A DNA stretch of 53,628 nucleotides, filler included, from Sluysia triapertura (taxonomy: Eukaryota): the NCBI GenBank assembly GCA_046118255.1. It is 4 parts of 4 records of this genome, joined end to end, with 100 filler letters (N's around TTAATTAATTAA, not from the genome) between each part and the next. Parts side by side here need not be neighbours in the genome. Positions count along the whole stretch, not along the records: positions 1 to 16,969 come from JBJNIA010194489.1; positions 17,070 to 30,603 come from JBJNIA010034044.1; 2 more parts are not named here. One strand, written 5' to 3'. The position numbers were made by a program, and so were the translations under genes. Below the pieces are notes generated by a model, which was not told the origin of the DNA, made no database searches, and saw only the letters and a program-made list of their open reading frames with translations. Of the stretch, positions 551 to 51,765 are shown piece after piece. Every line of letters begins with the position of its first letter. The first letter of the stretch is position 1.

Positions 551-1040
551 ATGAATGTCTCTAATCATACGCTACATGACAAAGTTTCAAAAGAAATCAT
601 ATCTGAAAGGATAAATCAATTAAATAAAGGCAGAAGGTTCAGGGAAACGTTGTACGAGCCTATCACTGATTATCAAACCAATGTTACAAGTTATACTGAG
701 GACACACAAGATACTCTTGCTACTAAAATTAATCGAATGCTATGCCCTTATAAATCAAATCTCAACGGTCAATGTCTAAAATTTGTAGCTATGTGCAGAT
801 TTGAACATACAATACTTGAAGAAACAATACTCTCTGACAGCTTTCCAACATCCCATAGAAACAGATTAAAACAGTTACTACTTTCTGTGATGAACAAATC
901 GATAAATATGGAAATTGTCCCGAAGACGAAATTCTTTTGTCAAAACAACGTTTCGGATTCAAATAAAGTAAAAATTTATAAATCTAATAACAAAATTTTA
1001 TTATTTATGACTTTTATTTTAGATGTCGGAACTTGTATAG
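551..1040 (+). CDS. Orphan CCCH zinc-finger protein (cassette cargo, unit U1); exons 551-967 and 1023-1040, true start may lie upstream
   Basis: MLCPYKSNLNGQCLKFVAMCRFEH (finger 743-808) = C-x9-C-x6-C-x3-H; phase-0 intron GTAAAA...TTTTAG 968-1022; homologous to the ORF at 19317-19685 (-). Confidence 0.6.
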
Positions 1041-1229
1041 ATCCCTCATGACATATTTTGGAAGATGCAACTTCAATTCATGTTTTAAATTTTATAATCA
1101 ATAAATTTCAGGAATTCTGTTTTCCTTCTTTCAGTTTAATCAATTTAAAAGTCATTTTTATAGTAAATGTTAAGTTTAAAGTTTTATATTTTAAATTTCT
1201 TAAAAGTTTTTATAAATTAAATAAATTTA

Positions 1230-2400
1230 ATAATATAATGAACATAATATCTACACATTTACTTAATCCAAAACATTTCAAGTTTAATCATTAACATCAG
1301 TGTAAAACATTTAATTCATATTTTAAAATCACTTTTTTAAAAAGAAACATTCTATTCAAAATGAAGTTTCTGTAACATCTTTAGTTATGTATTATTTCCA
1401 TTAAACATTCTTCTACCAGTTCTTTTCACATTTTAATTTTTCGTCTTTCGACATTTTAATGTCCTTTTCAAAGAAAATAAGAATCAGATCAAATATTTTA
1501 AAAAGCATTTAAAGTAAGAAAAAGAATTATTTTCATTAACAAGAAAGAAAAGAACTAAAAAGAATTTCATTTACAAGAATAAAAGATATATAAATTTTTG
1601 TATAATTATTTCTATTATTCATTTGTTACTTATGATTATCATTTTTATATTCAAAAGATCATGTAAGTTAAAGAAACATTGCATTTGTTTTATAATTTTT
1701 ACTATTATTTAATTTAATTTATTATTATTATAATTATTATTAATTTATTCTATTTTATATATTATTATTATCGCCATTGTTATTATTATCATTATTATTA
1801 TTATTTATCATAGTTTTAACTAAATAATTTTATCAATTTTGTTACCAACAGTATCATTTGTGATTATAACCTGTCATCAGTGGACAGTTTTTAATTTAAT
1901 GTCATGATGACAATTTCCGAGTCAACATACCGTGAAAGCTATTATGTTAATTCTATTACCATCAATTCAAGTCGAAATGTTCAGATACACAAATGTATGG
2001 CACAATGTCCATCCAAGTAGACAAATTCGGGACCTGTATCAAGTTTGGTGCATCTTGTCACTATTGTCATAATGTTTTGGAGATGAGCTAGGATAGTGTA
2101 AGGAACGTGATTGGTGGTGAACAAATGGATCAACAGGATCAGTCGTAACCTTCAATCTCAAGCTTTGGACAATATCATATTTTACAGTTATGTTAATGAG
2201 CCAGTATTTAAAGTAATTTTAAATTTTTATGATAAACTGACATTTGATTTTTATTATTTTTAAGGAACCCGAAATTTACAAGGATCATAGTATGCCTAAG
2301 ATGTTATGACGCGTTCAATATGATAAACAAATTAACAATTTTAACCATTTCTTAGATTGTATAATTAGATCCTTTAATAATAAATATGTGTTGTTATTCT
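1230..2400 (+). mobile_element. 5'-truncated, internally deleted TGTGGTGG-family cassette (U2) with decayed CCCH gene
   Basis: Leader ~1240-1330 resembles 8540-8640 (AATCCAAA(A)CATTTCAAGTT); box CTGTCA-TCAGT-GGACAG at 1871-1887; finger remnant 2006-2070 (MAQCPS/VDKFGTCIKFGASCHYCH); intron 2213-2264; last exon EPEIYKDHSMPKML*. Confidence 0.7.
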
Positions 2401-2999
2401 GTAAAGTTGTTAGAAAAAGAAAATAAATTAGAATTTTTAAAATTAAATTTGAGTAAATCGATAAGCAACTTTAAGAACATTCATAATTTAATTTATCTTA
2501 ATTTTAACGACAATTTAAAATAAAATCAAAGATATTATATATACCCCAAACAACTGGGTTATTTTCTAAAATATGTTTAATAAATTTCTTTGGATAAGCT
2601 GGTAAAATGTATTAATAAGACAGATCCAACAATAAAAAGAAACGATAATAAAATAAAAGCAATATTATCGTTATCCTCGCTACCACTATTGAATACCAAA
2701 AGTTTGAAAAGATATAATTTTTTACATATGGATAATGAAAAAAATGAACGTCTAAATATTAATGTATTTTTGTAAAAGCTGGGTTAAATTCAGGACAAAT
2801 TAGTATAAGCTGTTTAAGAATTCAAAGCGATTTATTTGCTTAAAAATGATAAAGTTCATCGTGGAGTTTTAAATTGTTTGTGTGTGTATGTTTATGGAAT
2901 TGTGAATTACAAAATTTAGACTACCGGGAGGAACAATGTTATTATTTTTGCAGGAAGTGCGTTATTTTAGAATTTACGTTATAATGTATTGAGGTGAAT

Positions 3000-3787
3000 G
3001 TATTTAACATATTGTGAATGATTGTTTATTTGAACTGTGGAGATTGTTTAAGTGGGCAATTTCTGTTTTTGTGTGTGGAGAGAGTAAATTAAAATTTTGA
3101 ATTACGAGGAGAACCACTACAAATATATCATCCGAATCGTCTACACAATCAATAGAATCTTCTGGTGACAACTCGGACTCCTCCAGATTAGGTTCAGAAC
3201 ACAACATAATAATGCTTAAATATCGAGAAACCAACACCATAATGGATTACATTATATATATTAGTAATTGCCCTCGTTCAATAGGCGAAACAAGAAGATG
3301 CTTCAGAACTTAAATAAAAATTCAAAATCATGAATATAGCTATAAATCATGGAAAAATAACAAAAAATCATAATTACAAATGTTTATAATAGGTACTAGA
3401 AATTGGAATTTATTTAGAAGAAATTAATCCTGCGGCATCCATTCGAAATTTATTGTATTTATTTGAAGCCTTTTATGATCGCTAAGCTGTGGCAGTCTCT
3501 GTTATGCATTTTGATCTATGTTAATAAGCTGTATCTTAGAATAATGGCGTCGATGGTGATAGTAATAATGTTTTGTAAAAGTTAAAATTTAATAGTGGTA
3601 ATAAATGAAAGTATTGTTCAATGAAAGTATTTTCAAAGTATAATCAATGAAAATTATTCAAAAAATATATGGGGATATATATGTAATGTTATGCATTGGT
3701 ATATGTAGAGTTTTAAGATGAAAATTTGTGTATGTATTTAATAATGAGAGTATACTGTAATCATAAGTGAAGAATTGAACCACCACA
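3000..3787 (-). mobile_element. TGTGGTGG-family cassette head (U3) facing U2, with decayed acidic orphan ORF
   Basis: CCACCACA at 3780-3787 (reads TGTGGTGGTTCA on minus, cf. TGTTGTGGTTCAC at 35040), followed on minus by a G-poor leader and ORF remnant 3004-3240 (SEPNLEESELSPEDSIDCVDDSDD). Confidence 0.5.
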
Positions 3788-4268
3788 AACGCCTTTCGAA
3801 ACGTGAAAATTACACAATACACCTAAAATTATTATTATTCGATTAAGTTCAATAAAAATCGAGGAAAACCAAAATTATCAGACAGTACTGAATAATTTAC
3901 TAACCCTGAGTATGTACTTCTAAACATGCCTTATTGATGATCAATATGAGAACAGCACACATAGTACAATTGAGATCATATTCAGAAATCATTGTTATTC
4001 AATAAATAAGCAGAAATGAAGCAATAATAAAATGTTTAATAGTTCTTATTAATCTACACAAAGTTGGTGATGTAAAATATTAAAAATTCGACAAAGATTC
4101 GAAATAATTTAACACAAAATTTGATAGATAATATTTATCAATTAATGTCGAGTTTTGGAAAACTGATCAACTGTAATTTACTTAGTATTTGTTGATTAAA
4201 TTGATTTCTTTTATTTGAAATTAGCGCTTATTTTTCATTAAAGTAGCACATTTATTGTTACTTCAATA

Positions 4269-4345
<77 letters not shown>
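4269..4345. repeat. (AAT)n microsatellite
   Basis: About 25 uninterrupted AAT units. Confidence 0.95.
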
Positions 4346-4346
<1 letters not shown>

Positions 4347-4440
4347 CATAGAAAATATATCTTGTTTTAACCAAAGTGTAAACAATATTTGTATTTATAA
4401 ATGTTTCATTAAGTACTTAGATATCTGAAAATAAACAAAC

Positions 4441-4786
4441 CTGTTTTCCATAGAAATTGGTATCTCCCAAGAAAGACCCGCGAGACCCGGTGAAACTGAA
4501 CATAGGCAGAGGTACTGGAATGGGCACATTGACGCCAACTAGACCCACATGGATATTTTGAGTAAACTTGCGAGCAGTGGCACCACTTCTTGTGAAAATA
4601 GCCGTACCATTTCCGTAAGGATTCTTGTTGATTAATTTAATTGCGTCCTCGAGCGTGTCCACTTCCAAACACAGCAGAACTGGACCGAATATTTCCTCAT
4701 TATAGCACTCCATACCAGGCTTCACGTTAGTAATAATAGTAGGACCCACAAAGTTCCCATTTTCATAACCGGGTACACGAATGTCT
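4441..4786 (-). CDS. ALDH6A1: Methylmalonate-semialdehyde dehydrogenase, penultimate coding exon
   Basis: [19 protein letters not shown]...EEIFGPVL...[32 protein letters not shown]; acceptor TTCAG|, donor CAG|GTTTGT; phase joins correctly to the 6849-7423 exon. Confidence 0.96.
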
Positions 4787-5902
4787 CTGAACACCAAATT
4801 AATAAGTACTTCTTGAATTTAAATGTTAATAAATCAGTAGTTTCTCGATATTTATCACCGAGAAATTCTTGAACACCGAGAATTATCGCAAATAATATGA
4901 TCATCCATTAGAACATAATTATTTTCATCACAAAAAAGATTAAAAAAGCAGTATCAGTTAGATATTCGAGTCAGAGAGATGCTGAAGGAAATCTAGTTAT
5001 TAGTAAAGCTTGAACTAAAACTGCTGATGATCAAATCAATAATCTTGGATCAATTAATTTCTTTTGCACTGGAAAATTGGCAGAATTAATAAGTAGATAT
5101 TCTAAATCTAATATATTTAGCTTCTGAAATTTAGGAATCCATATATCGAATAGTTATGAAATTGTGAACAACTTATGGCGTATCTAGATGCTTCTGTGGA
5201 TTTTACTTTAAACACCTTTTAAATCTGCTATTTCAATCTTTACTTCTCGTTATCACTGACTTTCATTTTAACACTACTTCTACCACGATTCGTACGTATA
5301 TTTAGATCTAGGATGAGCTGAAGGAAAATTATAGCGCTAAATAAATTTAACAATTACTATAAGAAAAGTTAAAACGTGAATTGAGAAAAAACAGTGAATT
5401 GGTGGAAATAGTGTTAATGATTTAAATATCCGTTATTGCATTTTCTGACCCACGTTCGAGTAGTTCCAACGAGTACATCGAGTGGCATTATGATGAAACT
5501 TCTATTTATGAAGAAAAACACATTTGAAGCTAAAAATGAAATTTCGAATTTGTCTTTAATAAAGATCTATACTTTGCACGATACTTACAACAAAGACATT
5601 TTAACTAAGTTGTTCAAAAATTAAAAATATTAGCTCAAATTTAATTTAGATTTATTTGTCATATCAAAGTTCGTCCGAACTTCAATGTTTGACTATTAGT
5701 TGTACTGTGCAGATATAAGGTCAAGGTCGTAATAATAATATACTATCATTGTAACAAAATAAAAAACACTTCTATAATAAATTCATTAAGAAATACATTG
5801 GGCACTAAAAATAGTCTCAAAATCCAACACGTGAGATACTGAAATACTTAAATTGACAATATCAACAAGGGTTTTCTCAATGTATTAGTATATCTCATTT
5901 AA

Positions 5903-6779
5903 CACTAGATGTACCACAACCGGTCACACGACCGCTTGTTTTGTTTTTTATCATTTTATATACAGGGTGTCCTAAAAGTTACCGAACCGCAAACTTAAGT
6001 AAAAATTAGATATCAAAAACGACAAATGCAATTTCTTCCTTTGTCATTTTATAATATTTTGGTTACTATTCACTTCCTTCTGTGAATAGCAGTAGTCTTT
6101 GGAATGACTTCTTTGTGCGTTCTTATTGATTTTATTCTGACGTCATGGCTTATTTTTCGTTCAGTGTGCTCTTCTGAGCCCTCATTCTTAAAACTGCAGC
6201 AAAGGACTTTAGATTTAAACGAACATATCTTTGTTACTAAGCAAGGATTAGCTGCAAGCATGTTAAAGAAAGATGGGAAGCAAATGTCAGAACACCCATA
6301 CGGCGTAAGTCGACAATGTTCAATCTTGTATCCAAATTTGAAGGAACTATGTTAATGAGTTCCCAATCTTCAACAAGACGGAGCACTTGCGCACTAGACC
6401 AAAGATGTTTGTCAATGCCTTCATGAAATAATTCCTAGACAATGGATTGGACGCCGAGGACAAATCGAATGGCCTGCCAGATACCCGGAATTCTAAAGAA
6501 TGCAGTTTATGCTAAAAAGCTTAGGACAATTGATCAACTAATTGAATTCAGCGCGAATGGAACCAAATTTCAGAGGAAACTTGCCAGAAAGTATTGAAGT
6601 TCAAGATGGACATTTTAAATATTAAATATACCTTTTAAATTTGACGTTTTTGATGTCTAATTTTTAGTTAAGTTTGTAGTTCGGTTACTTTTGGGACACA
6701 GTGCATAAAGAAATAAATGCACATTATTAAATAAATTATATTGTAATACATCTGGTGACCGGTGATGGTACATTTAGTA
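5903..6779. mobile_element. piggyBac-like MITE with TTAA target sites, containing a nested Tc1/mariner element
   Basis: TTAA|CACTAGATGTACCACAACCGGTCAC at left; GTGACCGGTGATGGTACATTTAGTA|TTAA at right (imperfect 25-bp TIR). Confidence 0.7.
5963..6703 (+). mobile_element. Internally deleted Tc1/mariner-superfamily element (WIGR/WPxRSPD type)
   Basis: About 65-bp TIRs (CAGGGTGTCCTAAAAGTTACCGAAC... / ...GTTCGGTTACTTTTGGGACACAGTG), TA at left; transposase remnant QQDGALAH*...PRQWIGRRGQIEWPARYPE at ~6371-6492. Confidence 0.85.
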
Positions 6780-6848
6780 TTAATGCAATGCACATATGTT
6801 TAAAGATATTCAGAATTACTTTTTGTCAATAATTTCGAAAACACAAAC

Positions 6849-7423
6849 CTTCCATCAAGTATTACATTAGCACCATCTTTCTCACTGCGACTCACAATGT
6901 CGAGAATTCGTTGTTTTGATTGCGGACTGATTACAGGACCCAAATCTGCACCCGGTTCTGTGCCTGCATTCACTTTCAGCTTTTTGGCACGAGCAACCAA
7001 GTCAGGAATCCAGTCGCGAGTGTCACCCACAAACAAAGCAGTACTCAAAGCCATGCATCGTTGTCCAGCCGCCCCAAATGCTGCCCCCACCAATTGATTC
7101 AATGCTACATCTTTCTTAGCATCCGGCATCACTACACCATGGTTTTTAGCTCCGATGTTTGCTTGGACACGTTTTCCAGCTTTAGATCCTCGCTCATATA
7201 TATGCTGCCCTGCTTGATTACCACCGACAAAGGAAATAGCTCGAATATGAGGATGGTCGCAAATGAAATCGACGGCTTCTCGTTGACCGTGGATTACATT
7301 GATGACTCCAGGCGGAATTTCAATTTCATTGCACAACTCCATTAGCATCATGCAAGCTCCGGGATCTCGTTCAGATGGCTTCAAGACCATCGTATTGCCA
7401 CATACCAATGAAAGAGGAAACAT
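6849..7423 (-). CDS. ALDH6A1: Methylmalonate-semialdehyde dehydrogenase, central exon with catalytic Cys
   Basis: MFPLSLVCGNTMVLKPSERDPG...AISFVGG...GAKNHGVVMPDA...AAFGAAGQRCMALS...ILDG; acceptor TGCAG|, donor AG|GTTTGT. Confidence 0.97.
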
Positions 7424-7519
7424 CTGCATCAAAATGAGAGTAATATATCAAATCTAATGTCTAATTTCAATTTGGGACACTATACAAGCACTTAAAATTT
7501 GGAAGAATCACTATCTAAC

Positions 7520-7827
7520 CCATAAAGGTATCATGGCCGGAAAGTTGAATGGAGTGATGCCTGCAGTGACTCCCAGAGGCTCACGATAACTCACAAGATC
7601 CATATCTTTAGAAATACTCGGCATAGATTCTCCCATTTGTAAACTAGTGATACTGCAGCAGTGTTCCACAACCTGCAAACCTCGCAGAACATCTCCATTG
7701 GCATCTGCGAGTGTTTTGCCTTGTTCTAATGTAATGTTTTGTGCAATTTTTCCCATATTTCGTTTTATTGATTCTTGCAACTTAAACATATATTGCTGCC
7801 TCGTTAGAATTGATTTTGACGACCACT
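7520..7827 (-). CDS. ALDH6A1: Methylmalonate-semialdehyde dehydrogenase, upstream internal exon
   Basis: WSSKSILTRQQYMFKLQ...ITLEQGKTLADANGDVLRGLQVVEH...PLGVTAGITPFNFPAMIPLW; 96-nt intron 7424-7519; acceptor could be 7827 or 7825. Confidence 0.96.
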
Positions 7828-9271
7828 CTAAATGAAATTTATTTGGTATGTTTATGTAGTTAATATAAATGTTTACACTATTAGCTGATAATAGGATCTA
7901 GATGAATGGTGCTGACCAAGTGAATTCAGCGACGTAAGGTCATTCATATTTATGGGCCCAAAACGTAACAAGAAAGTATAACAAAAGTATAATATAAAAA
8001 ATGAAATTCAACATGTTATTATCAGTTACTAAACGAACACGAACAAATGTCATAAACATTCGGTATATTTATAAATTCTAAGAAACTAACTTCGAATACC
8101 GAACAAATTTGTTGAATCAGCGATATTCAAATTATCAAAATCAGAAAAATTAATTAAAGATAAACCTGTTTTTGTGTGACTTTTTTTGATTGTAAAGCTA
8201 TTTTCGAAGTTTCGACGTATTTTTCTATATAGGGTCCCTATCCCCGCATAAAAACAGGTTTGACAGTATTTAACATTCATAAAACAAAATTTTAAAGTTA
8301 CACATTCGTTGTCATCTGTGGTGGCCAACCTCTTTATTCAAAATCACAATTATTAACATTTTACTTTTTCAGATCTATTAAAACCTTTTTACATTCCAAA
8401 ACATTTTAAATTCACAATCTCATAATATTAAAATCACACTTACATTCAAAACCATTAATGTGCATTTCAAATTTTATTTGAAATATTTTTTAATTCTCAA
8501 TTTTACAACATTAGAATCACAATTTACATCTTAAATTATCAAATATACATTTTATATGAATCCAAACATTTCAAGTTCACAATCTTTCAGCACTCAATCA
8601 TTAACACCTTTGAAAAACATAAACACACTTTAAAACCATTATAAACATCCGAATCCAAATAAAATTTTAGTCAAATCAATTTCAGATATTTTAAAGAAAA
8701 GAAATTCATGCTTAAAAGAAGAGAAAAGATTTATATTGCAATTTTATGCGTTTATGCGTTTTGTATAATTTTATTATTATTATTATCATTATTTCATTTA
8801 TTTTGTTATTTACATTTTAATTATTACTATTTTATTACAATTTATTATTATTTTTCATTTCATTATTTTTATCGCCATCTTTGTTACTACTAACTTTATT
8901 ATTCTTACCATTAACATTATTCATCAATACTACAAATACCATTTATATTAGTAACTGCCAGTAATTGACAATTTTAATTTGGGTGAGGCTCTTATCATTG
9001 TGTTAACTGTCAATTGCTGACAGTCTCATAACTGAGAATTTAATACATATCATTGCGTCACACCAACTGGCCATCCAATAATAGTTGATAAAATTAGTAG
9101 TGGTAATACAACCAGACTCAACAGTAGTTAATAAGAGTGTTCTGTGATTAAAAAAGAGACAGAAAAGTACTCTAAATATATATACTCAATTAACAGATAC
9201 CTAATTGTTAGAATTTTAGTTATTGTACGTTTAAAAAATTAAAAGGCTTAAAAGAAAAACAGAGGTAAAAA

Positions 9272-10399
9272 ATGCAGATCGATATTTTAAAAAGTATGCC
9301 TCGAAATCCAAATATCGAAAGAATAAAGTACATCAATGTAATCAAAATAGTAATAATTCAATGATTAAATTAGACCGATTTTATAGAAGTTGTAATGAAA
9401 TAATCATGAATGTTCCTCGTTTATCAATAAATCTTCAAGTACTGTAAATAAAAGTTTAAATCGATAAATTCTATGTAATTATAAAAAATCATCTAGATCT
9501 GTCAAAACATGTTACAATTACTTAGAAAGTTTTTATATTATGAAAATCGATCCTACTGTTTGTGAAGATAAATTGTATAACAATAACGTTGATTTTTTAG
9601 ACAATTTCAGGTGAAAGATATCAAAAACGAGAACTTATAAGCCATGGAATGTCGCACAACCAATATATGTGTTTAGAAAACCCATATGAAATAATAATTT
9701 CATATAATATGGCAAATCGTGGTCTCATGTTTCAAATTGATCATCCAGAAATTCATGCAATTTTGTATAAACACTTAATGCTTTTATTAAGACAAAATGT
9801 TCAAGAATCGGGAAAGTCTGATGTTATGCAGCTAAAAGATTTTAAGAACAGACAGATTATATGGAGTCGTATCACAAGATCGACTATTTCGTCTCATCAG
9901 CATTAATCGAGAGATATATTGAATTGATTTCATCATGGTTAAATATTGTTAATTGTGTTCAAGTAAATGGTAAAGGCCAATCTCGTTTCATGTCTATTTC
10001 AAACATAATCTCATCTAATCAAAAACGTATGGCGCAATGGCCCTCGGAGTAGATGTTTTTGGTACTTGTATAAAATTCGGCACATACTGCCCTTACTACC
10101 ACGATATATCTCAAATAAGTACTAATCAACATGAAGCAGTCGAACACAGAAGATTAGATGGTTTATTGGCCTCTTTAAACTGTAGATATTACCACAACGA
10201 CTTGAAGTTCAACAATTTTCAAGCTCAGGGACATTATGAAGATAATGATCCTCTTCATAAAGTAATTATAATTTTGTTATCCACGCAACCATTTATTTAT
10301 TTATTATTTATTTTTTAGGAATCCACAATTAGAACTTTTGATAATGTATCATATTTTGGACAAAAGAAGACAGAGCTCACAAATTTCATTAACATTTGA
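9272..10399 (+). pseudogene. Decayed CCCH zinc-finger cargo gene of U4
   Basis: Chain of frameshifted ORFs (9649-9906, 9861-10052, 10037-10318); finger remnant 10038-10102 (QWPS/VDVFGTCIKFGTYCPYYH); phase-0 intron 10262-10318; last exon ESTIRTFDNVSYFGQKKTELTNFINI*; AATAAA downstream. Start is approximate. Confidence 0.65.
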
Positions 10400-10579
10400 T
10401 ATAAAATTTAGATTTCATGTATGTCAAAATAAAATTTTATGCTTTTATTTTCTTAACGATTTTGATACCAGAGTAGAAATGAAAGTTTTTAATATAAAAT
10501 TATTTAATTATTTTCCTAACAACTCAATAAATTTTTATAATTTAATTTTAATTTGTTATTAACAATTAAACTAATGAAC

Positions 10580-11400
10580 TATACAACTCCAAAGTTTCGA
10601 AAAACTTGGACTATCATTAGTTTTAACAGTAGTAATGATTCTAGCGTTTTCGATAATTTCGAAGATAACCCATTTCCAACTTTATTCCTTAATAATCGAA
10701 CAGCCTTGTTATCATTTTCAGCTACTTTTAAATACATAAATGTTCAATAATTTTGTGTACATGAGATAATCTAAGATTTGTCTACTGGATTCTATTTAAT
10801 TCGTTGTAGTCTGTTTTAATCACTAAATCAAATTTCGACTCCCCAAAATTTCAGAAATTTTCAAAATTCATAAATTGTGCTTAAAAGGTCATTATTTAAA
10901 CAATATATATAATAATGAAATTAATAATATTTTTCGTTTTGTTTAATTCATTATAATAACATTATAAAATACATTTCTATCAGAACTTAAAATTTTACGA
11001 AATAGATCTACAATTCGTTAACTTCGATGATTTGATAACAGCAACAAAATTTTTCTTGTAATACATCACTCGAATTTTTCTTAGTACATAACCGTGACCA
11101 ACCAAATTTAAGTGTTCGTCCTCAGTAAGTGATTTATGTATATATGGTTGCATTTGCACAGGCACAGCTTCAAATACATGATTATCTTTTCGAAATAATA
11201 CTAAATATTGCGAGTTTTTATTTGTATCTACTAGTACAGGTTTATACCTTATATTTTATTGGTAAATGAGTAACACTCACTAAGACTTCTTTTTTCACTA
11301 TCTTCAATGGTGGCTTTAATGCACTTAATACAAATCTCGGAATACTTGTACAGGCTGCACGCAATCTTCTCTGTTTCTTCGAAAATTCGGAGATAATCAT
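10580..11400 (-). pseudogene. Decayed spliced orphan gene convergent with the CCCH gene inside U4
   Basis: Minus-strand open stretches DYLRIFEETEKIACSLYKYSEICIKCIKATIEDSEKRSL (donor GTGAGT at 11280) and YKPVLVDTNKNSQYLVLFRKDNHVFEAVPVQMQPYIHKSLTEDEHLNLVGHGYVLRKIRVMYY (~11000-11247); no recognisable domain. Confidence 0.4.
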
Positions 11401-13249
11401 TAATAAAATTTAATACATAAATACGTTTCTTGCCTAAACAGTTTTTTAATTCAATTTTAACACAAATTATTGATGAACATAAGTACTGATAAAGTAAGAC
11501 ATTTCACTGAATAAAAGTAATAAACTGAATAAACTGTTTGAAATGAAATATGACTAACATCAACATAATTAGTTATTATAATATTGAGTGATTTTATTGT
11601 GGAATTTTGTAATTTGTAGAGTGTGATTCGTAATTTTTGTTGAATTTATAAGATAATGTATAAAATATAATTAATGTGAGTGATAATAAAATTACTGCAG
11701 ATGACTGAAACACCACATTTTCTAATGATTTTTCTTCTTTATTCAATGTGCCAGGGTTTCCAATAACTAATTATTATTCTTGTTATTGTTATTATTAACT
11801 AAATCAAAACGCAAATGCAAAGTTTTATTGCCGAACTGTCTTCAAGGTAAAAAAACTATTTTTATAATATCGAAAATTATTAAACTTAGTGCGAAGCCCT
11901 TTTAATAAGCTATATAATATCTTAAAAGCACTAAATCATTGGCAATTATATTATTTTCAACATATCATTTAGTCCTTAATCTTTACTTCAAGTTAAAACA
12001 AAAACTAATTTCAGAATTTCTTATAATACTTTTGTTAATTACAAAAATGTTCAATTTAAATAAAAATTCGAACAAACTATCGATTATTTGCTTTATTTCT
12101 TATAATTCTGATAAAACTTAGAAAATTTAAACTGAATTGATGATAAAAACTTTCTATCAATTATGAATATCGAAGAGTTGCCAATAAGTAATATTTTTCG
12201 ACAATAGTATTCCAAATGACAATTTCAACAATAACCGCAAAATAACAAAATATGGATTACCAAAATTTAAACAATAAACGTAAAACCACGTACCAAAAAT
12301 TGAACAGTTCAGGAACAATAATCGAAAATTAAGTAACTACCACATCACTTTTTTGTATTTTGGTCTCAGTCTTTTATATAAATTCAGTAGTTATTTATTT
12401 TTTGACAAATTTTAAAATTAATTAACATTAAGTAATTTTTATTTATTTTAAAACTCGTTTTATTTATTCTAATAATTAATATTTATATTTCGGTTATATT
12501 ACTCAGGTTATTTGTTTACCTATTAAAATTATTATATTATTTTTAATATTATTATCATTTATAATTTCAGATACCCAACAAATAATATTACATTATGCAT
12601 AAAATATACATCGGTATTATAAAATTTAATGTAATGTCAATAGTAATAAAGGATATGTGTCGTATTACATTATGTACTTATAACGTTGTAATACTTTATT
12701 CTACCATGTAATGTAATATTCGAAGAGGTGAAATTAATCTCACTTCCATCTCGAACACCTTCAGATTTTATAAAGAACTCGAAAATAATTTTGTCTAGTA
12801 TGATTAATACAATCAGTCACAGACGGAAAGATGTTCTATCTTAAATAGGAATAATAAAATGACTATTGAGAACAATGTCAGAGAAAACTGATTAAAAATA
12901 TGCACAATAGATAATTTTTGAATTAAAGCAAATAAAATAGACACAATAAAAAAGGAACAATAAATAATTATTTTGAAAGAAGCAAAATAAAATCAAAGCA
13001 AAAACTTGAAACAGTCGTCAACAGTTAGAAAATAATCATTGAATATTTTATATAGTAAAGGAGTAATCACGTCAATTTAAATTAATTGTGAGCTTTTCAT
13101 AATTAAAGAGCAAAATCATGAGTAAAATCATTTACATCTCTTTTAATTAATCTGTCAAAATCAAACTTGGTATTCGTTTTGTTATTGCTCATAATTCAAA
13201 AGCGAAATAAGAGCTTTAGAGACTGTAACTTTATGCTATTAAGTATCTA

Positions 13250-14390
13250 ATTTATTTTTGTGTTGTGGTTATCTAAAGAAAATGCTTGATAAGTGAAATT
13301 TCATCGTGCAGCCTTAAAAGCGAGCACAGTGGTTGTTTGGCGAGTTGTCAAGAATTATCTTACTTGGCGTTAATATAATATAAGTTGTTTTTCGCACATC
13401 GCTTCTTTCTCGATAGCTTTAAGAGCTTCGATTCGCTTATGTTCAATCATAGTTCGTTCTTCTATCCAAAAAGGTACCATTTAGTTTTGTTATTTCAAAA
13501 AGGAAGTTTACAAAGATGATCAAATGTTCAATAACTACAATTCCACAATTACATTAATAGCATTGTTGTTTTTTACTTTTCCACTAATTCCAGTAATTCC
13601 CAATTTACTCATATCAATTGCAACAGCAAAGTAACTGCCAAACTTGTTCACCGAATGGACTTTGAAAGCAATTAATCCAATTTCAAGAATATTATTTAAC
13701 AAACAAAACAATATAATCAAATTGGATAAACATTGGATAAACAGATCATCATACTTAGAAAATATAGCTTCTTCTACTTGAAAAAGTGTCATTTCACAGC
13801 TAGACCGTTTTGAAGTTGACATTTTAGAATTCCATACAACAGTAGCGTCCGGAAAATTATTTTTATATAAACAAAATGCAATTTTGATAGTGGGAAAATG
13901 TGTCACTGTTATTTAAATTATTATTATATTTACTGGGTTTATAATAATGAGGAACATAAGGGTTATAACTCATGTTTGAAAATGAAATAACCACCATTGA
14001 GAAATCAAGACAGAATATTATGATGACTTGTGATAAAATAAGTGTATAAAATATTTGATTCAAAATGAAAAAATGAAAGATATGAAGAATTAAATTGATG
14101 TTCATGAAGATACCAATTCAAATATGCGACGTAAAATTGACGCATAAGGTATTATACAAAAGATTTCTGTGAAAAATAAATTTATTTCATTATTTTTTTC
14201 CTTAATTTCAATTAATAAATTGCATTATTGATATAATAATTTGTGTAATTTATATTTCCTTAAGAGAAATAAAGACTTACGAATGTGTTAATCCGGACAC
14301 GAGAGCAAATCTTTAATTGAAAAATGGAATGTATTACAGAACGTTAAGCAGTATCATAGCCGATAGTTGAGTTCCACAAAAGCTTTATAA
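13250..14390 (-). pseudogene. Decayed spliced orphan gene
   Basis: ORFs 13535-13906 and 13863-14105; donor GTAAGT at ~14280; short terminal intron GTAAGA...TTTTAAG (~13314-13363) followed by AATAAA, the same 3' layout as the cassette genes. Confidence 0.35.
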
Positions 14391-15399
14391 CCAAAATTTC
14401 TTTTCAGCACAGAATTAATTTAAATTGACTCCTTAAATTCGAGTATTACTGATTAACTTTTAATAAAATTTTATGGTACTTAGAAATTTTTAATTAAAAC
14501 TGACAAATTGATTCCTTAAATTCACGTAACACGAATTGACTTTCTAATAACTAAATTTCCTTTTAATAAATAACTATTGTCCTTTTAATAACTAAATTTA
14601 TCTTTTATATTCTTTCCAACATTTAGCATTTAGTATTTTTACAGGTAATTAACTTTCATAAATTTTGATATAATAAATTATATAATATCAGATACATTTG
14701 GAACATCTGGTTGCTTGCTTATTATCTATTATCATCAGTAACTATTTATCATTTTTTAAATTTCAGTTCTCAATTATCCTGTTATATTAGTTTATTATTA
14801 TTATTACTACTACTACTACAATTCTTATTATTTATTTTTTATTATTTTAGATTATTGTTCAAACGTCCAGATTTCTGACTCTGACATTATTATTTTATTA
14901 TTATTCATTAATATCCTACTTACATTTATATGTTTGACATTATTATTTTATTCTTATTGCAATATTATTATTAATTATTATTATTTTATTAATATTATCA
15001 TTGTTTTATAACTATTATTACTTCATGATAATTATAGTTTATTTTGGCATGACAGAAAGATGCCATTATTATTTTTCAGTAAAACAGTTTTATTAATTTT
15101 CCGAATAACCAATTTTTAAGAAAATAATAAACATTTTTATTATTTAATTTTGGATTTACTTCATCAAATAAATTAAATACACATAAGTTTTATCGATTTG
15201 GGTTGTTGACATAGTTGTAGTTCTTTTGATTGTCTTATTTATTGTTAAATTTGACTGAGCCGTACTAAATTTGCAAAAAACAAGTGATTATCTCGAGATT
15301 TTCATTCGATTGAAGTGTAATTTGCCATTTTACTAATTTAATCAAATGTGGGTAAGATACTGGATCAAATAATAATATTATTAATTATAATGCATTAGA

Positions 15400-16830
15400 A
15401 ATTAATGTTACAACAAGCTGTTATACGATTATTGATGACTCAAATATTGAATTTAATGGAATAATACAATGTCAATTAACAATTTTAGATGTAGACTTGT
15501 TTGTAACAACATTGGTATGGGACAGATGTATTATATGGAAGATTAGGATTTCTTAAAATACCATTAGGAGCGCACATAGTTATACCACAACAAAACCAAT
15601 TAAGAACAGAATTATCACATTATCACAATTCACCAAGACCGCCAACACCAACTCCAAATTGGGAAAATCTCGATTTGTGGGATTTACAATCACTCCATCT
15701 GGTGTAGAAACGTACAATAGTAATAATGATAGTAGTAATAGCATCAGCATAATGTTTATAAAATGAATTCAAAGTAATAAATTGCCTTACATAATAACTT
15801 GTATATTATTAGTTATTCAATTAATGATAATGGTAACATCATCTTCATCAAATAAAACAGAATATACTGATACTAGGAAGGAAATTTTCTTATCAAATAC
15901 TTTTAACCGATTTTTGACAGTAGAAATTGATAATAAAAATGAAGTCCCTAATTATAACTTGGATATATATTGCACATATTTCCAATCATTATCAATAAAG
16001 AAACCTTCAATAATAGACAATATTTTTAAATGCGAACATTCAATTTATTTTACTACAATTATAGGATTTTCATTTCATAATAAATCAATAACCATTAATA
16101 ACGGCAATAAGTACGATAATCAATATCACTAGTAAATTGAGTAACAATAAAATAACTAAAAATGTCAAGAAAAATAAATTAGATATAGAAATGCCTTTAT
16201 AATAGCACTTTTAGTATTTACAATAATATAAATGTTATTTACCGTTTATTACATAATTACTTGCAATAGAATTATGAGTTAATTATATGAAGCAAAATAT
16301 GATGTTGCTTACTTTAATAACATTGATTTCAATTACATATGCATCTCAAAGAATTTATAGATCAAAATATTTTGACTTTTACAAATTAAAATGATAAAAA
16401 CAATATTAAAGCACGTTATATATGCATTAGTCCAGCGAGACTCAATTTTAGTATATGGAAAATATACAAACACGTTATACCTAATACGGAAAACCTTAAA
16501 CGATTTACTTTCTGAAGATAGACATATTAATATTTATAAAAAATCAAACCAAAGTTATTAAACTCCATTTTGCAATTCCTCACAATATCCAGCAAAAAGC
16601 ACATTCTGCACAGACTATTCTTGCAATATTTTTCATTTTGACAGGCCTATTAAAAATATAAACTTAAACTTAAAGTCAGAACACAAAAAACACAAGAGAT
16701 ACTCTCCTGAATGACTTAGATGATATTGACAATGGATGTGGAGTAGTGGGATCCAGCTTACAAGATGAATACTACAACTGCAGCGATTCTTTGGACTATG
16801 TATTTGATTTATTAGAGTGACAGGAACTAA
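15400..16830 (+). pseudogene. Decayed orphan gene region with a CCCH-like motif (U5)
   Basis: Y*TPFCNSSQYPAKSTFCTDYSCNIFH at 16556-16636 (C-x11-C-x4-C-x3-H preceded by a YKT-like lead-in); other coding-like fragments at 15517-15708, 15782-16132 and an acidic tail at ~16710-16820. Confidence 0.4.
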
Positions 16831-16912
16831 CGAAATTAGAGACTAATTTTCCCAAGCGAAAATTATTTGTAGTAATGTAGTGATATATTTTGACATACAC
16901 TTATTTGATATA

Positions 16913-16964
<52 letters not shown>

Positions 16965-16969
16965 TATAT

Positions 16970-17069
16970 NNNNNNNNNNNNNNNNNNNNNNNNNNNNNNN
17001 NNNNNNNNNNNNNTTAATTAATTAANNNNNNNNNNNNNNNNNNNNNNNNNNNNNNNNNNNNNNNNNNNN
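16970..17069. other. Assembly gap with artificial TTAATTAATTAA linker, preceded by (ATT)n
   Basis: 100-bp N block with a central six-frame-stop linker; identical blocks at 30604-30703 and 42309-42408. Confidence 0.95.
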
Positions 17070-18269
17070 TATATATCTACCGAGAAATTGCATAAAAAGA
17101 TCGTTATTATTTTAATAACTTTTATTTTTGTAATATTAAACACCAAATATTTTTTTTAACAAATAGCGATTAATTAAATATTTTCCAATATTAAATATTT
17201 ATATATGATCAATTGTCATACTTAATAAATTATAACATAATTAAGAGTGGTAATTAAAAGTAAATTTGTCAAAATACTAACGTAATTTTGAAATTATTAT
17301 GGTGTCATACGTGAGAAAGTATGCTATACAAATTACATTGGTGAAATTTAACTGTACAAACAGTTGTAAGAGTCACTTTTTAAATGAAATGTGATTGGTT
17401 GTATCAGTTGATTAACTGTAGTGACATTTATTATGCAACAAGTAAATTTCGTATTTAAAATTTGAATGTTGTCAATGACAACTTGGAATGCATTTGAAAA
17501 TTGAATTGTAGTATTTAATGACATTGTGTTTTTTTGGTTTAGATAATTACTAGTTCAGTTCCATAATTAAATTGCTATTTGGATATAAAGTAATTTGATA
17601 ATAATTAGTAAGTTTTATTACTTTTTATTATGTAATTTTTGTATTTTAATTGGTCACTAATTTAGTTACCTTTTTTATAAATATTTCGAGCATTCAAAAT
17701 AATTAAAATCATATTTACAAATTGCATAATAAGTTTTTGATATTTGTAAAGCTTATGAAAGAGTAAAGTACAATTTCCTTAAGTTAATCAGTTTTTAAAG
17801 TTATAAAAGGCCTGAAATTTTTTGATTTTGCTTTCTCGAGTAAATATATCTTAATGTTAAACAAATACAAGATGTTCAGTTATTTATATATAAATTTTAT
17901 ATATAATTTTGGTTGAAACTGAATACAAGGCTTATTGTTTTAATTGCTCTAACTGTTTATCAGTTATACAATAAAGTTTTATTGTATTTAAATTATATTT
18001 AATCCTTATTTTCTTTGTAATTTTAGATTTTGATAGATACGTTTTATTTAGTATTTGCATTAATGTTACATACGTTCATTGTAAAATCTTTAATGTTTGA
18101 CAAAAGGTAGCTACAATTTTATTAAATCCTAAATTAGGAATTATTTTCAATAATTATTTAATCTAATTAAAAGATCTTCATTTAGTTTTAGAAATGTCGA
18201 TAATGCTATTTCAATTTTAAATGCTGTGTTATAGATTATGAAAACTTTATTTAAATTTAGAATACTAAA

Positions 18270-18359
18270 ATGAGTGGAGTTTATACAAGACGTTTTTTTC
18301 ATCTTCATAAACCAGAAGCATCTTTAAGTAGTCGATTTGGAGGTGTACCAGCTCTTATG
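18270..18359 (+). CDS. Uncharacterised EF-hand-like protein, first coding exon
   Basis: ATG...MSGVYTRRFFHLHKPEASLSSRFGGVPALM, donor GTAGGT; 43-nt intron to TTACAG. Confidence 0.65.
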
Positions 18360-18402
18360 GTAGGTAATATAGAATACGATGATATTTTATGATACCTTAC
18401 AG

Positions 18403-18502
18403 GAAAGAGAACCATCACCAATGCCATCGACAATTCGTCGGAGTACTCCACATTCGTTAAATCCATATATCGTACTTCCTCCGATTAGTTATCGAAAATT
18501 TG
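18403..18502 (+). CDS. Uncharacterised EF-hand-like protein, exon 2
   Basis: EREPSPMPSTIRRSTPHSLNPYIVLPPISYRKF, phase-1 donor G|GTTAGA that joins in frame to 26088. Confidence 0.65.
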
Positions 18503-18589
18503 GTTAGAAATTATGAATTTTATGACTAACACATCCAAAAAATACAATATTAATATTAGCTTTATTCCATTGTGCTGCGGCTTTTCAAA

Positions 18590-19055
18590 TATTTACCTAC
18601 GGAAAAATATTTTTGAGCAGGGTCTGGTTACAGTAAACGTCTTATGTTGTGCAGAGGGTGTTTCTGTAACTATATAAGCTAATATTTTATCTGAATAGAA
18701 ATACTCCTTAATTGTGGTCTTATCGAATGCTCAAAATTTTAATAATTTACTCTGCAACTTTCAATAATTAAATAGAAATAAAAATAATAACTTTATTATA
18801 CAAAATACTAAAGCTTTATAGCAATAAAAATACTAAAGATGATAAAAACAGTATTTTAAAGATTAAAGCTCCAATAGTACTTAATCTATTGTCTGTATTA
18901 TTTTAAGTATATATTAACATCTATACGTCGAGGATTTAATAATTAAATTTTACTGAATATTTAAGTAAAATTTTAAAATTTCAACTTCGAAGGTTGATAC
19001 TAGTTTATATACTAGTCATCAGCCGATAGGAATCGATGGAAGCTTCTATTGCATT
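18590..19055 (-). repeat. Interspersed repeat family X, inverted partial copy
   Basis: 18615-18675 is the approximate reverse complement of 23715-23775; 19005-19050 of 23120-23170. Confidence 0.75.
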
Positions 19056-19059
19056 TTTA

Positions 19060-20905
19060 ATTTATAATTGTTTTATTAATGTGGTTTAATTTATTGTACA
19101 GAATTAAAATTATTAAATTGAAATTGTTTGTTATTAAAATTTTATTTACTTTATTAAATATTGTTATTAAAATATGAACTTGAAAATTACGATTAAGTTT
19201 CATTGTTATCTTCATTAAATAAATTGTTTTAAATTCACTTAGAAAAAATAACAAGTCGCACAAAACATTGAACTTACTTATATTAATTAAACTACGAGTT
19301 ATAAATTTGACACCAATTATCTTCCGAATACGATTAATTTAAGATCAGTAAAGTAATATTTAAATTTTACTTTTATGTTATCTGGTACCACTCGATCGTA
19401 TTGTAGATTTGTGTGACTGTTATTGAGCATGTCGAATTGTTCCATATAAGTATATTGTACTGGAGAAGTACTTAAAATTGATAACAGCTTGTCTATTCTG
19501 TTGAGATGTAGGATAGCATCTGTTGAATTATTTCCAAACTTTTGGAGTTCGTCAGCTGTGTGGTAATATTTGCGTCTTGTGACATATCTTGAGCATTCTC
19601 CGGTTAGTGTTGTTATGTACGGACATAGGGCCGTCTTATAATGTTTGTTGAAATCTGCTAGAGTTGACATCTTTGTGCATTGCAATTTGTTACCAGACTA
19701 CGATGAATTGAAACGAATAATTTCCGAATTGATGTTTGAAGTTTTTGATTGTATTGAGCACAGTTTATTTGTCATAACAAATAAATCAACATCTACTAAT
19801 AGATTGATAGGCATAAGCATAAATAGTTTTATTTAATCTCCAGATATTGTCATATATCTTTATCAATCTGTTTCATTATATAAAGCTAGCTAATCAAGTG
19901 ATAAACTAAATGGTAAAATAAGTCTGTTCATGATTGGACGACCAATAGAATTATATATTGCTAAATGTGTATTTGTACTCAATGAGACGGTGAGTATGTA
20001 TGCCCACAATCAAACTTCCATTATTCGACTGTCGGCATTTGACAGTAAATATTATCGACACAGTCTTGTTTAATTAAGCTATCAATCACTGGCAGTTACT
20101 AAGATGTGTTCAATGTTAATATTAAATTATTGATATTAACATGATAATAATTAAATAGTAATACTAATAATAATACTGATAATAGCAATAATAAAAATGG
20201 TTAAAATGATAATAATAATAATAGTAATAATGAATAAAATAAAATAATAATAACAAAATAAAAACATAAACCTCTTTAATATCGTCTAAACACAATCTTT
20301 CTTTTAATTTTATTTACTATTTTCTTAACACATTATGAAATGAAATCCTTGAGAATCATAAATGATGTTCTTTTATCTTTGTTGATTATCTGGATACTTG
20401 GTTTCCTTCTTTATGCTTTTCGAATTATAAGTTGTAAATAAGATTGTGGTTTGGATATTAAAAGATTGTGGATTAAAAATGTTTTAAGATATTAAAAATG
20501 ATTTTAGTAAATCTAAAAGAAATGAAATACAGCAACGGTTTTGATACGTTCTAAAAGGTAGTTATACAATGTTAACAAATGTCCTTATGATTGTACTGTT
20601 ATGTAACTATGAATAAAATGTTTTTAATGAATTTTTAAAAGTCTGTTATTAATCTGAAAGTGAATGTAATGTTAATGTTATGAAGTATGAAATAGAAATG
20701 TTTTGAGAAGGTTAGGATACGGTTTTTGTGGAAGTAAAGGAAGTGAGATATGAAAAGGTTTAGATGAAAGAATAATTAAAATGTTATGGAATGTGATTTT
20801 TTGTGACGTGTGTTGAATTAAGTTTGCAATATTTTGAATTAACCTTTTAAGTAAATCATTGATGATTTTCCGTATTAAATGTAAATTTGATGTTACGTAA
20901 TTTTA
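19060..20905 (-). mobile_element. TGTGGTGG-family cassette (U6), first ~90 nt missing, with CCCH cargo gene
   Basis: Leader 20600-20905 (minus) aligns closely to 26985-27170; boxes 20079-20095 and 20029-20045; TGATTGGACGACCAAT at 19931-19946; finger YKTALCPYITTLTGECSRYVTRRKYYH (19560-19640, third Cys mutated to Arg); candidate phase-0 intron 19321-19370. Confidence 0.8.
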
Positions 20906-21191
20906 AGTTTCAAAAGTATAGGACGCATTATGCAAACTTTTTATTTAAGGGACTATACAACAAATTTTGAATATAAAGTTTTAAAATAGCAAAGGTAATT
21001 AATTCTGATATGGAATTGTTGAGCAAGTTTGCCACACTTCTCAAATGTGAAGTCACAAAAAGGCGACCCTCGTGTAAATTCAAAGCTGCGAATTATACCG
21101 AATTCAATTTTCCTGGATACTTGATAATTTATGTCAGTTCTGCTTGAAACTCGACAATAATCGGTGTAATTCTTGCTTACCTTGTCGTATA

Positions 21192-21668
21192 CAGTGGTGG
21201 CCAAGTTATTAGACTAAAGACCGTTTTTCAAGGATACTATGAAACTATTAATCAAAAGTATATAAAAATATTGTCACGAAAAATGTAAAATGTTGGAAAA
21301 TAACTACTTTCTCCAAAAAATTCTGCTGAAAGTAAAATAATAGATTAAAATACTGAGATCCAAAACATACGGAAATTTTATTCATGTAGCATGATACTAC
21401 AAATCAAATACGTACAAACTGTTGTATATCAGTACTTTGTTTACCCTCCTTTGTTATCCAATAGTTTCCTGATCCTTAAAGGCGCATGCCATGGATGAGC
21501 TTCTCGCCATCTTAATGCCATACTTTTATCAGGGTTTCAATAAGTTTATGGGTAGAAACTTTCCTTTTGACAATCGCCCACAGATTTTCTATGGGATTCC
21601 AGGCCAGGGTAGCAGCTTAACACCATAAACACATTTTTCTGTTTAGTCTAATAATTTGGCCACCACTG
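21192..21668 (-). mobile_element. Internally deleted Tc1 element
   Basis: TA|CAGTGGTGGCCAAGTTATTAGACTAAA ... TTTAGTCTAATAATTTGGCCACCACTG|TA; minus-strand remnant GVKLLPWPG/NPIENLWAIVKRKV; second copy at 51766-52210. Confidence 0.92.
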
Positions 21669-22658: not shown

Positions 22659-23815
22659 TAGGTTGTCATCACAACCCTCTAAAATCATGTAAAATGTTAT
22701 TAACCCATTCCCTGTTTATTTATTTTTCAAGGGCATGGTTGAAAACTAGGTATTTTTTTATTAGTGAAAATGCGAAGACAAAATAATTTTCTTCTAATAG
22801 AAAAACAAATAAAACTAGACAAACAAGGTAATAAAACATAGAATGTAATATTAAATAATAACAAAAGAAGTGTATAAAGATATTTCCGACGTCGTTTTAT
22901 AAATATTACGAAGATTACACTTATTTTTTCGTTTGATTGTTTTGGTCCGTATATGTACAGGATTTTATGCTCTGGTCAGTTTTAGTTCCCCCGTAAATAT
23001 ACGGAATAAACAGGGAAGGGGTTAAAACACTCTAAAAAACATTTAAATCACTTTAAAAATATTTATTTTCCAAAAAGGAAATTATTTTTCGAAAAAGAAA
23101 ATTTGCTTCTAAAAATAGAATAGAAGCTTCTATAATGTTCATCGATTTCTATTGGTTGATGACTAGTATATTAATTTAGCATCAGTTTAATTTAGTAGCC
23201 ATTTCTTAATCACCATTTTGGATTTGGCTACAATTTGATTTATAAATTTTCACCGAGGAAAAAACGATTTATCATGCAATTAAATAATCAATTTTTAATT
23301 GGCTATCCTCGTCAAATCATTCAGCGTTATTAATATCATTTATTAGTAGGGCATTTTAGGAAAACAAGCTGAATTTGATTTATCATTCTCGCAAAGATTT
23401 AGCAAGTTACATTTCTATAAGTTCTTTCAATCATACAGATTGGAATAATATAATCATACGGAAAATCATTTATTTAACTTTGTTTAACTCTACCTTCTGA
23501 GGGTAAATTTTATATTCAACTTATATTATAAAAAGAGAAAATTAAAGATCCTTTGTGATTTTAATTGTTATTTCTATTTGATTACACTCTTTCATTTCAT
23601 TAATATTCAGTTTATACCATAAAAGAAGATGATTGTTTAATAAAACCGTCATAAAACATTACAATTATTAAATAATTAACGACTCTCAGTCATTTTATGT
23701 CAAAATTTGCTTATTATAGTTACAGGAACACCCTCTTTACGACATAAGACGTTTACTGTAACTGGATCCTGCTCAATTTTTTATTTTGCCGTAGATTTAG
23801 ATTTAAGAAAACTAT
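22659..23815 (+). repeat. Interspersed repeat family X (probable non-autonomous DNA element)
   Basis: TAGGTTGTCATCACAACCCTCTAAAATCAT and GCTTCTAAAAATAGAAT...GATGACT blocks shared with 50026-50225 and, inverted, 18590-19055. Confidence 0.7.
22704..23021. mobile_element. piggyBac-like MITE inserted in family X
   Basis: TTAA|CCCATTCCCTGTTTATT ... AATAAACAGGGAAGGGG|TTAA; absent from the family X copy at 50 kb. Confidence 0.85.
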
Positions 23816-30603: not shown

Positions 30604-30703
30604 NNNNNNNNNNNNNNNNNNNNNNNNNNNNNNNNNNNNNNNNNNNNTTAATTAATTAANNNNNNNNNNNNNNNNNNNNNNNNNNNNNNNNNNNNNNNNN
30701 NNN

Positions 30704-30928
30704 CGATCTGTCAGTATACTCGATAGATTCAAAAACCATAAATCCAATCGCCGTGAAAATTTGGGAAATTATTAGGTATATCCCCGGGAAGGTTTTTGAA
30801 AATTTTATTGTTAATTTTCATTTTGATGTATTGTACACATTTGATCATTAATAAACTATGCTTGATTTATCAAAACTGCCTTTTTGTTCAAATTTTTAAC
30901 ATATCAACGCGTGAACGAGTACAGCTAG
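30704..30928 (+). mobile_element. Non-autonomous Helitron-like repeat, 3' part
   Basis: Shares GATAGATTCAAAAACC...AATCGCCGTGAAA...CCCCGGGAAGGTTTTTGA with 46869-47217 and 53461-53628; ends CTAG|T. Confidence 0.75.
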
Positions 30929-30957
30929 TTTAAGAATAAATAAAAATAAATAGAAAA

Positions 30958-42234: not shown

Positions 42235-42236
<2 letters not shown>

Positions 42237-42308
<72 letters not shown>
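42237..42308. repeat. (TTA)n microsatellite abutting gap 42309-42408
   Basis: Direct reading. Confidence 0.95.
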
Positions 42309-51735: not shown

Positions 51736-51765
51736 ATATCAGATGCAAGATGTGATTTATATATA

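Follow-up and report, generated by a model that had tools for sequence, protein, structure and literature searches.

A candidate lineage-specific family of decaying single-finger CCCH genes that share an upstream block in Sluysia triapertura

CCCH zinc fingers are defined as C-X4-15-C-X4-6-C-X3-H in plant surveys, which describe spacings of x9/x5, x7/x6 and x8/x6 (PMC2267713, PMC2478707). Unkempt (UNK/UNKL) carries six tandem fingers and a RING domain (PMC4358403), and its ZnF1-3 prefer A/U-rich RNA, with a low affinity (PMC12136788). Roquin (8rhs) binds AU-rich RNA through a single CCCH finger with a stabilising C-terminal helix (PMC11381341), and the TIS11/ZFP36 and nematode POS-1 proteins (1m9o, 1rgo, 6nzl) carry their fingers in tandem. 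Here we describe a stretch of 53,628 nucleotides from Sluysia triapertura (assembly GCA_046118255.1), four parts joined end to end and hereafter called the window, that holds four and probably five copies (U1 to U5) of a small gene with one CCCH-type finger.

We propose that these copies belong to a lineage-specific family of small spliced genes, encoding an Unkempt-like x9/x6 finger and a helix, which has been duplicated together with an upstream block of about 800 nt and has passed through birth and death of its members; we give this reading a probability of roughly 0.55. Homology among the copies, a common gene structure, a common block, past purifying selection and lesions are the established parts of it. 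The germline CCCH expansions of nematodes are a comparable case. The coding features of the copies are these:

551-967 (+): U1 exon 1, 139 stop-free codons from an ATG, the sole copy with four ligands in frame
743-808 (+): U1 finger, C-x9-C-x6-C-x3-H; Pfam zf-CCCH_UNK E 0.013, 24 residues over 24 positions
854-880 (+): U1 conserved helix HRNRLKQLL, a predicted helix with a model confidence (pLDDT, predicted local distance difference test) of only 50-60
968-1022 (+): U1 predicted phase-0 GT-AG intron, 55 nt
1023-1040 (+): U1 short last exon, five codons and a stop
2006-2070 (+): U2 finger, one base short following Cys-Pro; stop at 2089-2091
2213-2264, 2265-2309 (+): U2 intron (52 nt) and last exon
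9990-10052 (+): U3 lead-in frame, from an ATG through 16 codons ahead of the first-ligand site to a TAG end
10037-10261 (+): U3 finger frame from an internal ATG, with ligands 2-4 (10038-10102) and helix (10142-10168)
10262-10318, 10319-10399 (+): U3 intron (57 nt) and last exon
19371-19670 (-): U4 exon 1, 100 codons, with YKTALC lead-in, finger (19560-19625) and helix (19482-19508)
28913-29089 (+): U5, a degenerate copy (unit 28913-29199) with the same intron type and last exon
29090-29145 (+): U5 intron, followed by the last exon

An initial annotation of this DNA had described four C-x9-C-x6-C-x3-H motifs as one diverged CCCH family. All four peptides lie where it placed them, but the complete motif stands in a single frame in only one of the four, U1, which is also the only copy to satisfy the broad CCCH definition in one frame and, as read, the only one able to yield a complete finger. 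A six-frame scan of the window for C-x6-11-C-x4-7-C-x3-H returned two matches, one being U1 and the other an x11/x4 string at 16571 with no relation to it, and revealed no further finger in any unit, leaving one finger per unit. The family itself held up well when 1524 six-frame segments were compared, with 1000 shuffles per pair. Searches with U1 and with U3 each returned the other three copies as the top three non-self matches, and searches with U4 and with U2 each returned two of the other three as the top two; five of the six finger-segment pairs among U1-U4 had scores reached by none of 1000 shuffles, the sixth (U4-U2) by 72. The exact motif occurred in none of 60 simulated windows. The three similar helices of the annotation (854-880, 10142-10168 and 19482-19508 on the minus strand) were recovered, as was its far divergence of the DNA, finger-to-finger blastn giving no match at E 1e-4. 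A Gly ahead of the second Cys, and Phe or Tyr at Cys2+3 and Cys3+2, are present in all four copies. Judged from sequence, the homology of U1-U4 is beyond chance.

The gene structure is likewise held in common. A phase-0 GT donor lies 3' of the helix in all five units. For U1 and U3 alike its distance from the His codon is exactly 159 nt, and in U1, U2, U3 and U5 it opens an AT-rich intron of 52-57 nt with a T-rich acceptor, the best candidate in each unit under hand-set weights; the U4 donor is at 19370 (-), with an uncertain acceptor. U5 is a probable fifth copy that rests on this context, its protein similarity not being significant (8 of 1000 shuffles reach the score of its best pair, 257-778 those of the other four pairs).

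The copies differ in their lesions. Relative to U1 and U4, both U2 and U3 lack one base immediately after the Cys/Trp-Pro codons, so that a frame change is needed to join lead-in and finger, and the helix region of U2 (2111-2212) is out of the finger frame through a second frame change ahead of the helix. The first ligand is absent from the finger frame of U3, where Trp stands in place of Cys, and the third ligand of U4 is Arg instead of Cys. U1 may encode a 144-residue protein free of lesions, with U2, U3, U4 and U5 damaged or truncated. Upstream introns offered only weak candidates as a cause of the remaining frame changes, and we rejected an intron of 26 nt at the break in U2 and U3, as it would excise codons homologous to those of U1 and U4. 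The methylmalonate-semialdehyde dehydrogenase (MMSDH) gene of the host served as a control for insertion and deletion errors in the window:

4441-7831 (-): MMSDH, three intact exons (7520-7831, 6849-7423, 4441-4788)

Since these exons show no stop and no frameshift across 411 aligned codons, the lesions of the CCCH copies are unlikely to be sequencing errors and are probably real.

Four of the units are preceded by a block of about 800 nt with a common order of parts: a G-poor stretch rich in AACATT, runs of AAAGA, degenerate repeats of TTA and palindromic CTGTCA-N5-TGACAG sites.

1080-1900 (+): U2 upstream block, non-coding, rich in AACATT, with AAAGA and TTA repeats; homologous to the blocks of U3, U4 and U5 (z 5-10 relative to local shuffles)
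1871-1887 (+): U2 palindromic site CTGTCA-N5-TGACAG, one mismatch
8317-9100 (+): U3 upstream block, starting with TGTGGTGG; palindromic sites at 8955-8971 and 9007-9023, CCAAT at 9075
19930-20930 (-): U4 upstream block; palindromic sites at 20079-20095 and 20029-20045, inverted CCAAT pair at about 19933-19946
26899-27890 (+): U5 upstream block, starting with TGTGGTGG; palindromic sites at 27724-27740 and 27774-27790, inverted CCAAT pair at 27877-27890

All six pairs of blocks are homologous (z 5.1-13.8 against shuffles of local composition). The window has eight matches to CTGTCA-N5-TGACAG with at most two mismatches, where 0.8 would be expected overall, and seven of them fall within the four blocks; U3, U4 and U5 have two sites 50-52 nt apart with CCAAT boxes 3' of them, and U2 has one. 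The blocks are non-coding, without codon-phase bias and with 20 of 85 gap lengths divisible by three, and a coding origin was ruled out by this absence of codon periodicity. Rfam gave no match at its gathering threshold over the window, and none at E up to 1 over positions 1-30500. TGACAG is the site of MEIS homeodomain proteins (PMC7224207), and in flies TALE proteins of the TGIF type switch on genes of spermatogenesis (PMC3494694). The palindrome pairs fold significantly in U3 (z -3.3) and U5 (z -2.7) and not in U4, and their arms pair across copies (10-13 of 17 positions) almost as well as within them (11-14 of 17), so that an RNA hairpin is no more than a possibility.

Two further segments, 14380-15120 (+) and 41950-42310 (+), have weak similarity to the block (z up to 4.2 and 5.7, respectively) without the palindrome, and may be older block copies or merely TTA-rich. 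A motif like TGTGGTGG, followed by some 300 nt of A/C-rich, G-poor sequence, is found at 3114-3121, 3780-3787, 11710-11717 and 35033-35040 (-) as well as at 8317 and 26899 (+); the window has five exact matches to TGTGGTGG, and 18 with one mismatch against 11 expected. The motif may mark a terminus or belong to a promoter.

The pattern of substitution shows past purifying selection, and the family was therefore long protein-coding. Between U2 and U3 the differences at codon positions 1, 2 and 3 number 5, 5 and 18 over 22 finger codons (binomial p 0.0008), and the two share 13 residues, 11 of which are encoded by different codons, with non-synonymous differences (pN) at 0.21 and synonymous differences (pS) saturated. 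The pairs U1-U2 and U1-U4 lean in the same direction. The U2-U3 result supports the initial annotation on this point; U1-U3, U2-U4 and U3-U4 are too saturated to be informative. The segments were first found through protein similarity, which biases pN downwards, but their homology is set independently by block and intron.

As to the kind of finger, zf-CCCH_UNK (PF25427) is the top model for all four copies among 24,736 Pfam models, and the matched spans, taken as lengths and not as residue-by-residue alignments, are equal in residues and profile positions in each (24/24, 31/31, 19/19 and 20/20). A canonical finger occupies 34 profile positions with 32 residues, which means that the model has two extra positions. 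Unkempt presumably has x9/x6 spacing in one of its fingers. The second loop of MBNL1 is x6 in the PDB comparison, and the published CCCH ranges cover x9/x6. The spacing, called unusual in the initial annotation, is thus not new and fits a known, Unkempt-like type of finger in all four copies; a conserved host CCCH gene of the same spacing, which that annotation had named as the finding that would count against it, exists in part in Unkempt, to which the sequence similarity is weak. Descent from Unkempt is possible on this comparison. The genes here are multicopy and decayed, encode 100-144 residues with a single finger, fall below the Pfam cut-off and show no RING match in the frames scanned.

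The best solved-structure match was 6nzl (E 0.003), and the TIS11/ZFP36 and POS-1 structures, the best matches in the PDB, have the conserved Gly and aromatic positions in common with the copies. Nonetheless a TIS11/ZFP36 type is not supported: each loop is longer by one residue (two alignment gaps), the finger is single, and no pair of tandem C-x8-C-x5-C-x3-H fingers was found. The YKT-x-LC lead-in is present in one of the four copies, U4. Roquin resembles the family in its lone finger and helix, but the RING and ROQ domains are absent here, the conserved helix begins 10-17 residues past the His, and 8rhs was unmatched by window sequences in the PDB search. A profile (HMM) search found no homolog of the family among 1.84 billion representatives; its three matches were a repeat protein and two CCCH proteins of a generic kind with several fingers. 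None of the 23 candidates from a word-indexed protein search with U1 reached E 0.1, and phmmer against the PDB with U4 gave chance matches only. The TRAF/Sina-like leads for U4 in the Atlas (score at most 0.82) were rejected; about a third of shuffled proteins reach 0.8 there. The CCCH assignment is supported by its consistency with the Pfam, PDB and Atlas leads. In the literature searched, the exact string C-X9-C-X6-C-X3-H was not found under that single notation, nor was any finger of this kind tied to a transposon.

The model that most reasonably fits these observations would run as follows. The family would have spread by duplication of DNA that included the upstream regulatory block, after which the copies diverged and died. 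An intact member, which would be expressed, would hold zinc in its single finger, and the two conserved aromatics would stack on single-stranded U/A-rich RNA, as such residues do in CCCH fingers elsewhere. Since a lone finger would be a weak binder in need of added affinity, we suggest that the helix stabilises the finger, or mediates oligomerisation or recruits partners. Through its TALE-type TGACAG sites, which come in pairs, and its CCAAT boxes, the block would serve as a promoter restricted to certain tissues, of which the germline is a plausible one. Read in this way, the family would illustrate, on a modest scale, how quickly orphan genes for RNA-binding proteins turn over in an animal that has been little sampled; its loop spacing by itself is no surprise, and the interest lies mainly in the conserved palindrome block and in the unexplained frame offset common to U2 and U3.

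Several points weigh against this proposal. The zf-CCCH_UNK scores (15.8-19.5 bits) are far under the cut-off of 31.1, the Unkempt chains in the PDB gave no match at E up to 10, with POS-1 and TTP-type fingers scoring higher, and the structure model of U1 (AlphaFold), another check proposed earlier, was uninformative at pLDDT 41. For U3-U4 and U2-U4, pS is about equal to pN at around 0.6, which is saturated. U2 and U3 retain a common frame offset that is unexplained, while their silent sites are saturated. U1 lacks an upstream block in the window and is preceded by broken frames and a 72-bp miniature inverted-repeat transposable element (MITE). The evidence comes from one window. Finally, silent sites are less well conserved than the block, and each copy has a different sequence in the stretch from block to finger, for which plain gene duplication gives no account; in two units this stretch holds orphan frames:

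9235-10049 (+): orphan reading frames of U3 in the intervening stretch, distributed over several frames; no homology detected, whether to the other copies or in Pfam
28046-28764 (+): U5 intervening orphan frames of 75 and 187 codons, without homologs (none of 25 candidates at E 0.1 or better in a word-indexed protein search with the U5 orphan frame)

The conservation of the block and the variable content behind it are what one would expect if block and gene formed a non-autonomous mobile cassette, moved by a Penelope pLTR (pseudo-long terminal repeat) or a DNA transposon and carrying an intron-containing CCCH gene with variable extra frames. The copies are scattered on both strands around host-gene exons, two of four blocks start with TGTGGTGG, and separate TGTGGTGG ends (29419 on the plus and 39363 on the minus strand) form an inverted repeat. 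There is also a precedent, since Penelope pLTRs in Adineta vaga are able to mobilise intron-containing host genes and disperse them with a non-coding cis block (PMC3846280). Here, however, a flanking pair of direct repeats, a target-site duplication, a Penelope open reading frame and a ribozyme were not found. No unit has a second block copy 3' of the gene, the 3' flanks are not homologous (z at most 2.7 in all ten pairs), direct and inverted matches at the unit ends are no longer than in shuffles in all four units, no Rfam or hammerhead match was obtained, and no reverse transcriptase, GIY-YIG or DDE motif occurs in a credible context. No terminal direct or inverted repeats were found to frame the units, though old copies could have lost theirs, and flank matches did not exceed shuffles in any of four units, whose ends are undefined. 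As terminal repeats, target duplications, reverse transcriptase and transposase were not found, the description of the genes in the initial annotation as element cargo is unsupported, and so is its suggestion that they act on element RNA or on silencing, three of the four fingers being broken as read. We regard a mobile cassette as unlikely, if worth keeping in view; were it true, the block would supply the cis-acting sequence for moving a spliced RNA-binding gene, a result of greater importance. Blocks paired as long terminal repeats were tried and rejected, the next TGTGGTGG block past U5 not being similar (z 0.2). A broader version, in which the block of an unsampled animal lineage both mobilises and expresses the gene and a long-lived subfamily, U2/U3, produces its finger by a conserved non-canonical shift of frame or from an internal start codon, seems to us improbable.

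The inverted pair of about 180 nt (29419-29600 on the plus and 39226-39366 on the minus strand, each beginning with TGTGGTGG; z 15) lies 10 kb apart, and inward of each block is an orphan frame, the two being weakly similar to each other (38 of 1000 shuffles). This pair is possibly the two ends of an old element.

The frame offset admits several possible explanations: internal initiation after a deletion in the ancestor, independent loss in the two copies, or true recoding. In the last, U2 and U3 would form a subfamily in which lead-in and finger are joined by a conserved change of frame, either a programmed shift (-1 or +2) at a stop codon or editing. The offset is identical in size and place in both copies in spite of silent-site saturation, and is the sole frame lesion of U3 across 9990-10399. 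Upstream of the break, the differences in the other frame are 2, 1 and 6 by codon position (p 0.04), and with the 5, 5 and 18 downstream this makes selection apparent on either side of the offset. Yet the sequence at the break has no slippery heptamer and no stable structure downstream of it (z 0.03 and -0.37), the features expected of programmed -1 ribosomal frameshifting, and Trp replaces the first ligand of U3 while U2 has additional breaks. In both copies an ATG in the downstream frame stands nine codons ahead of Cys2, and internal initiation there after an ancestral deletion accounts for the selection seen downstream. That two decaying copies suffered the loss in parallel has, by our rough estimate, a chance of a few percent. 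We consider recoding very unlikely; if it were true, as a recoding event without a slippery site, the finding would matter more.

More doubtful still is the view that an endogenous large DNA virus, or a virus-like element, whose small orphan genes were numerous left the units behind as remnants. Numerous orphan frame remnants lie nearby, and the top Atlas match of the U1 finger region is a 123-residue Nucleocytoviricota cluster (0.87), a lead only, given how often shuffled proteins score 0.8. Against this, the spliceosomal intron is conserved, 13 frames searched against PHROGs gave two weak matches of unknown function (E 0.002-0.008), and Pfam viral-family matches were weak and below cut-off, with no homolog among the representatives searched. 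Chance look-alikes in AT-rich DNA, suggested by the full motif standing in one of four copies and by sub-threshold Pfam scores, are hardly credible against the shuffle tests, common intron position, common block and codon-position bias; this explanation is refuted for U1-U4 and may still apply to the U5 protein.

The window around the family is AT-rich eukaryotic DNA (18-40% GC per kb). Spacers at 16970-17069, 30604-30703 and 42309-42408, each 44 N, a 12-base TTAA repeat and 44 N, are not biological, and a microsatellite or AT run adjoins each. The best MMSDH homolog among 94 proteins compared is 79% identical, and molluscan and rotifer sequences lie near it in a tree of weak support (0.32-0.74), which makes the host an animal without close representation, at the protein level, among the matches examined. 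The first 85 or so codons and the last exon of MMSDH had no match anywhere in the window by profile search; the introns may be very long and host the units, the exons may have fallen into gaps, or the gene may be an incomplete duplicate. Two exons (49661-49992 and 52569-52977, plus strand) encode a probable small GTPase of the Ras family that has insertions rich in N and S (Pfam Ras E 0.011, below cut-off).

Other repeated sequences are present. Two pairs of orphan-family remnants lie on the plus strand, 3361-3486 with 15878-16003 (z 11.3) and 3807-4030 with 130-350 (z 5.5, marginal among the 136 pairs compared), and a VDVDLFV-like peptide occurs upstream of U4 and near 15490. The MITEs of Tc1/mariner type comprise two with CAGTGGT- terminal inverted repeats and TA flanks (21191-21668 and 51765-52214), the 72-bp miniature at 21-92, and an element of about 760 bp with 74-nt terminal inverted repeats (5954-6712) inside an MMSDH intron. 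A repeat at 18979-19059, 23035-23184 and 50067-50211 combines ATTGG, TGATGACT and a TATA-like run; its copy 3' of U4 has CTGATGA and a short stem, without a proper hammerhead core. Finally, a young repeat family (30707-30931, 46870-47220 and 53461-53626) is 83-91% identical among its copies, contains a CTGT microsatellite and resembles what we take to be short elements of the Helitron/Helentron type.

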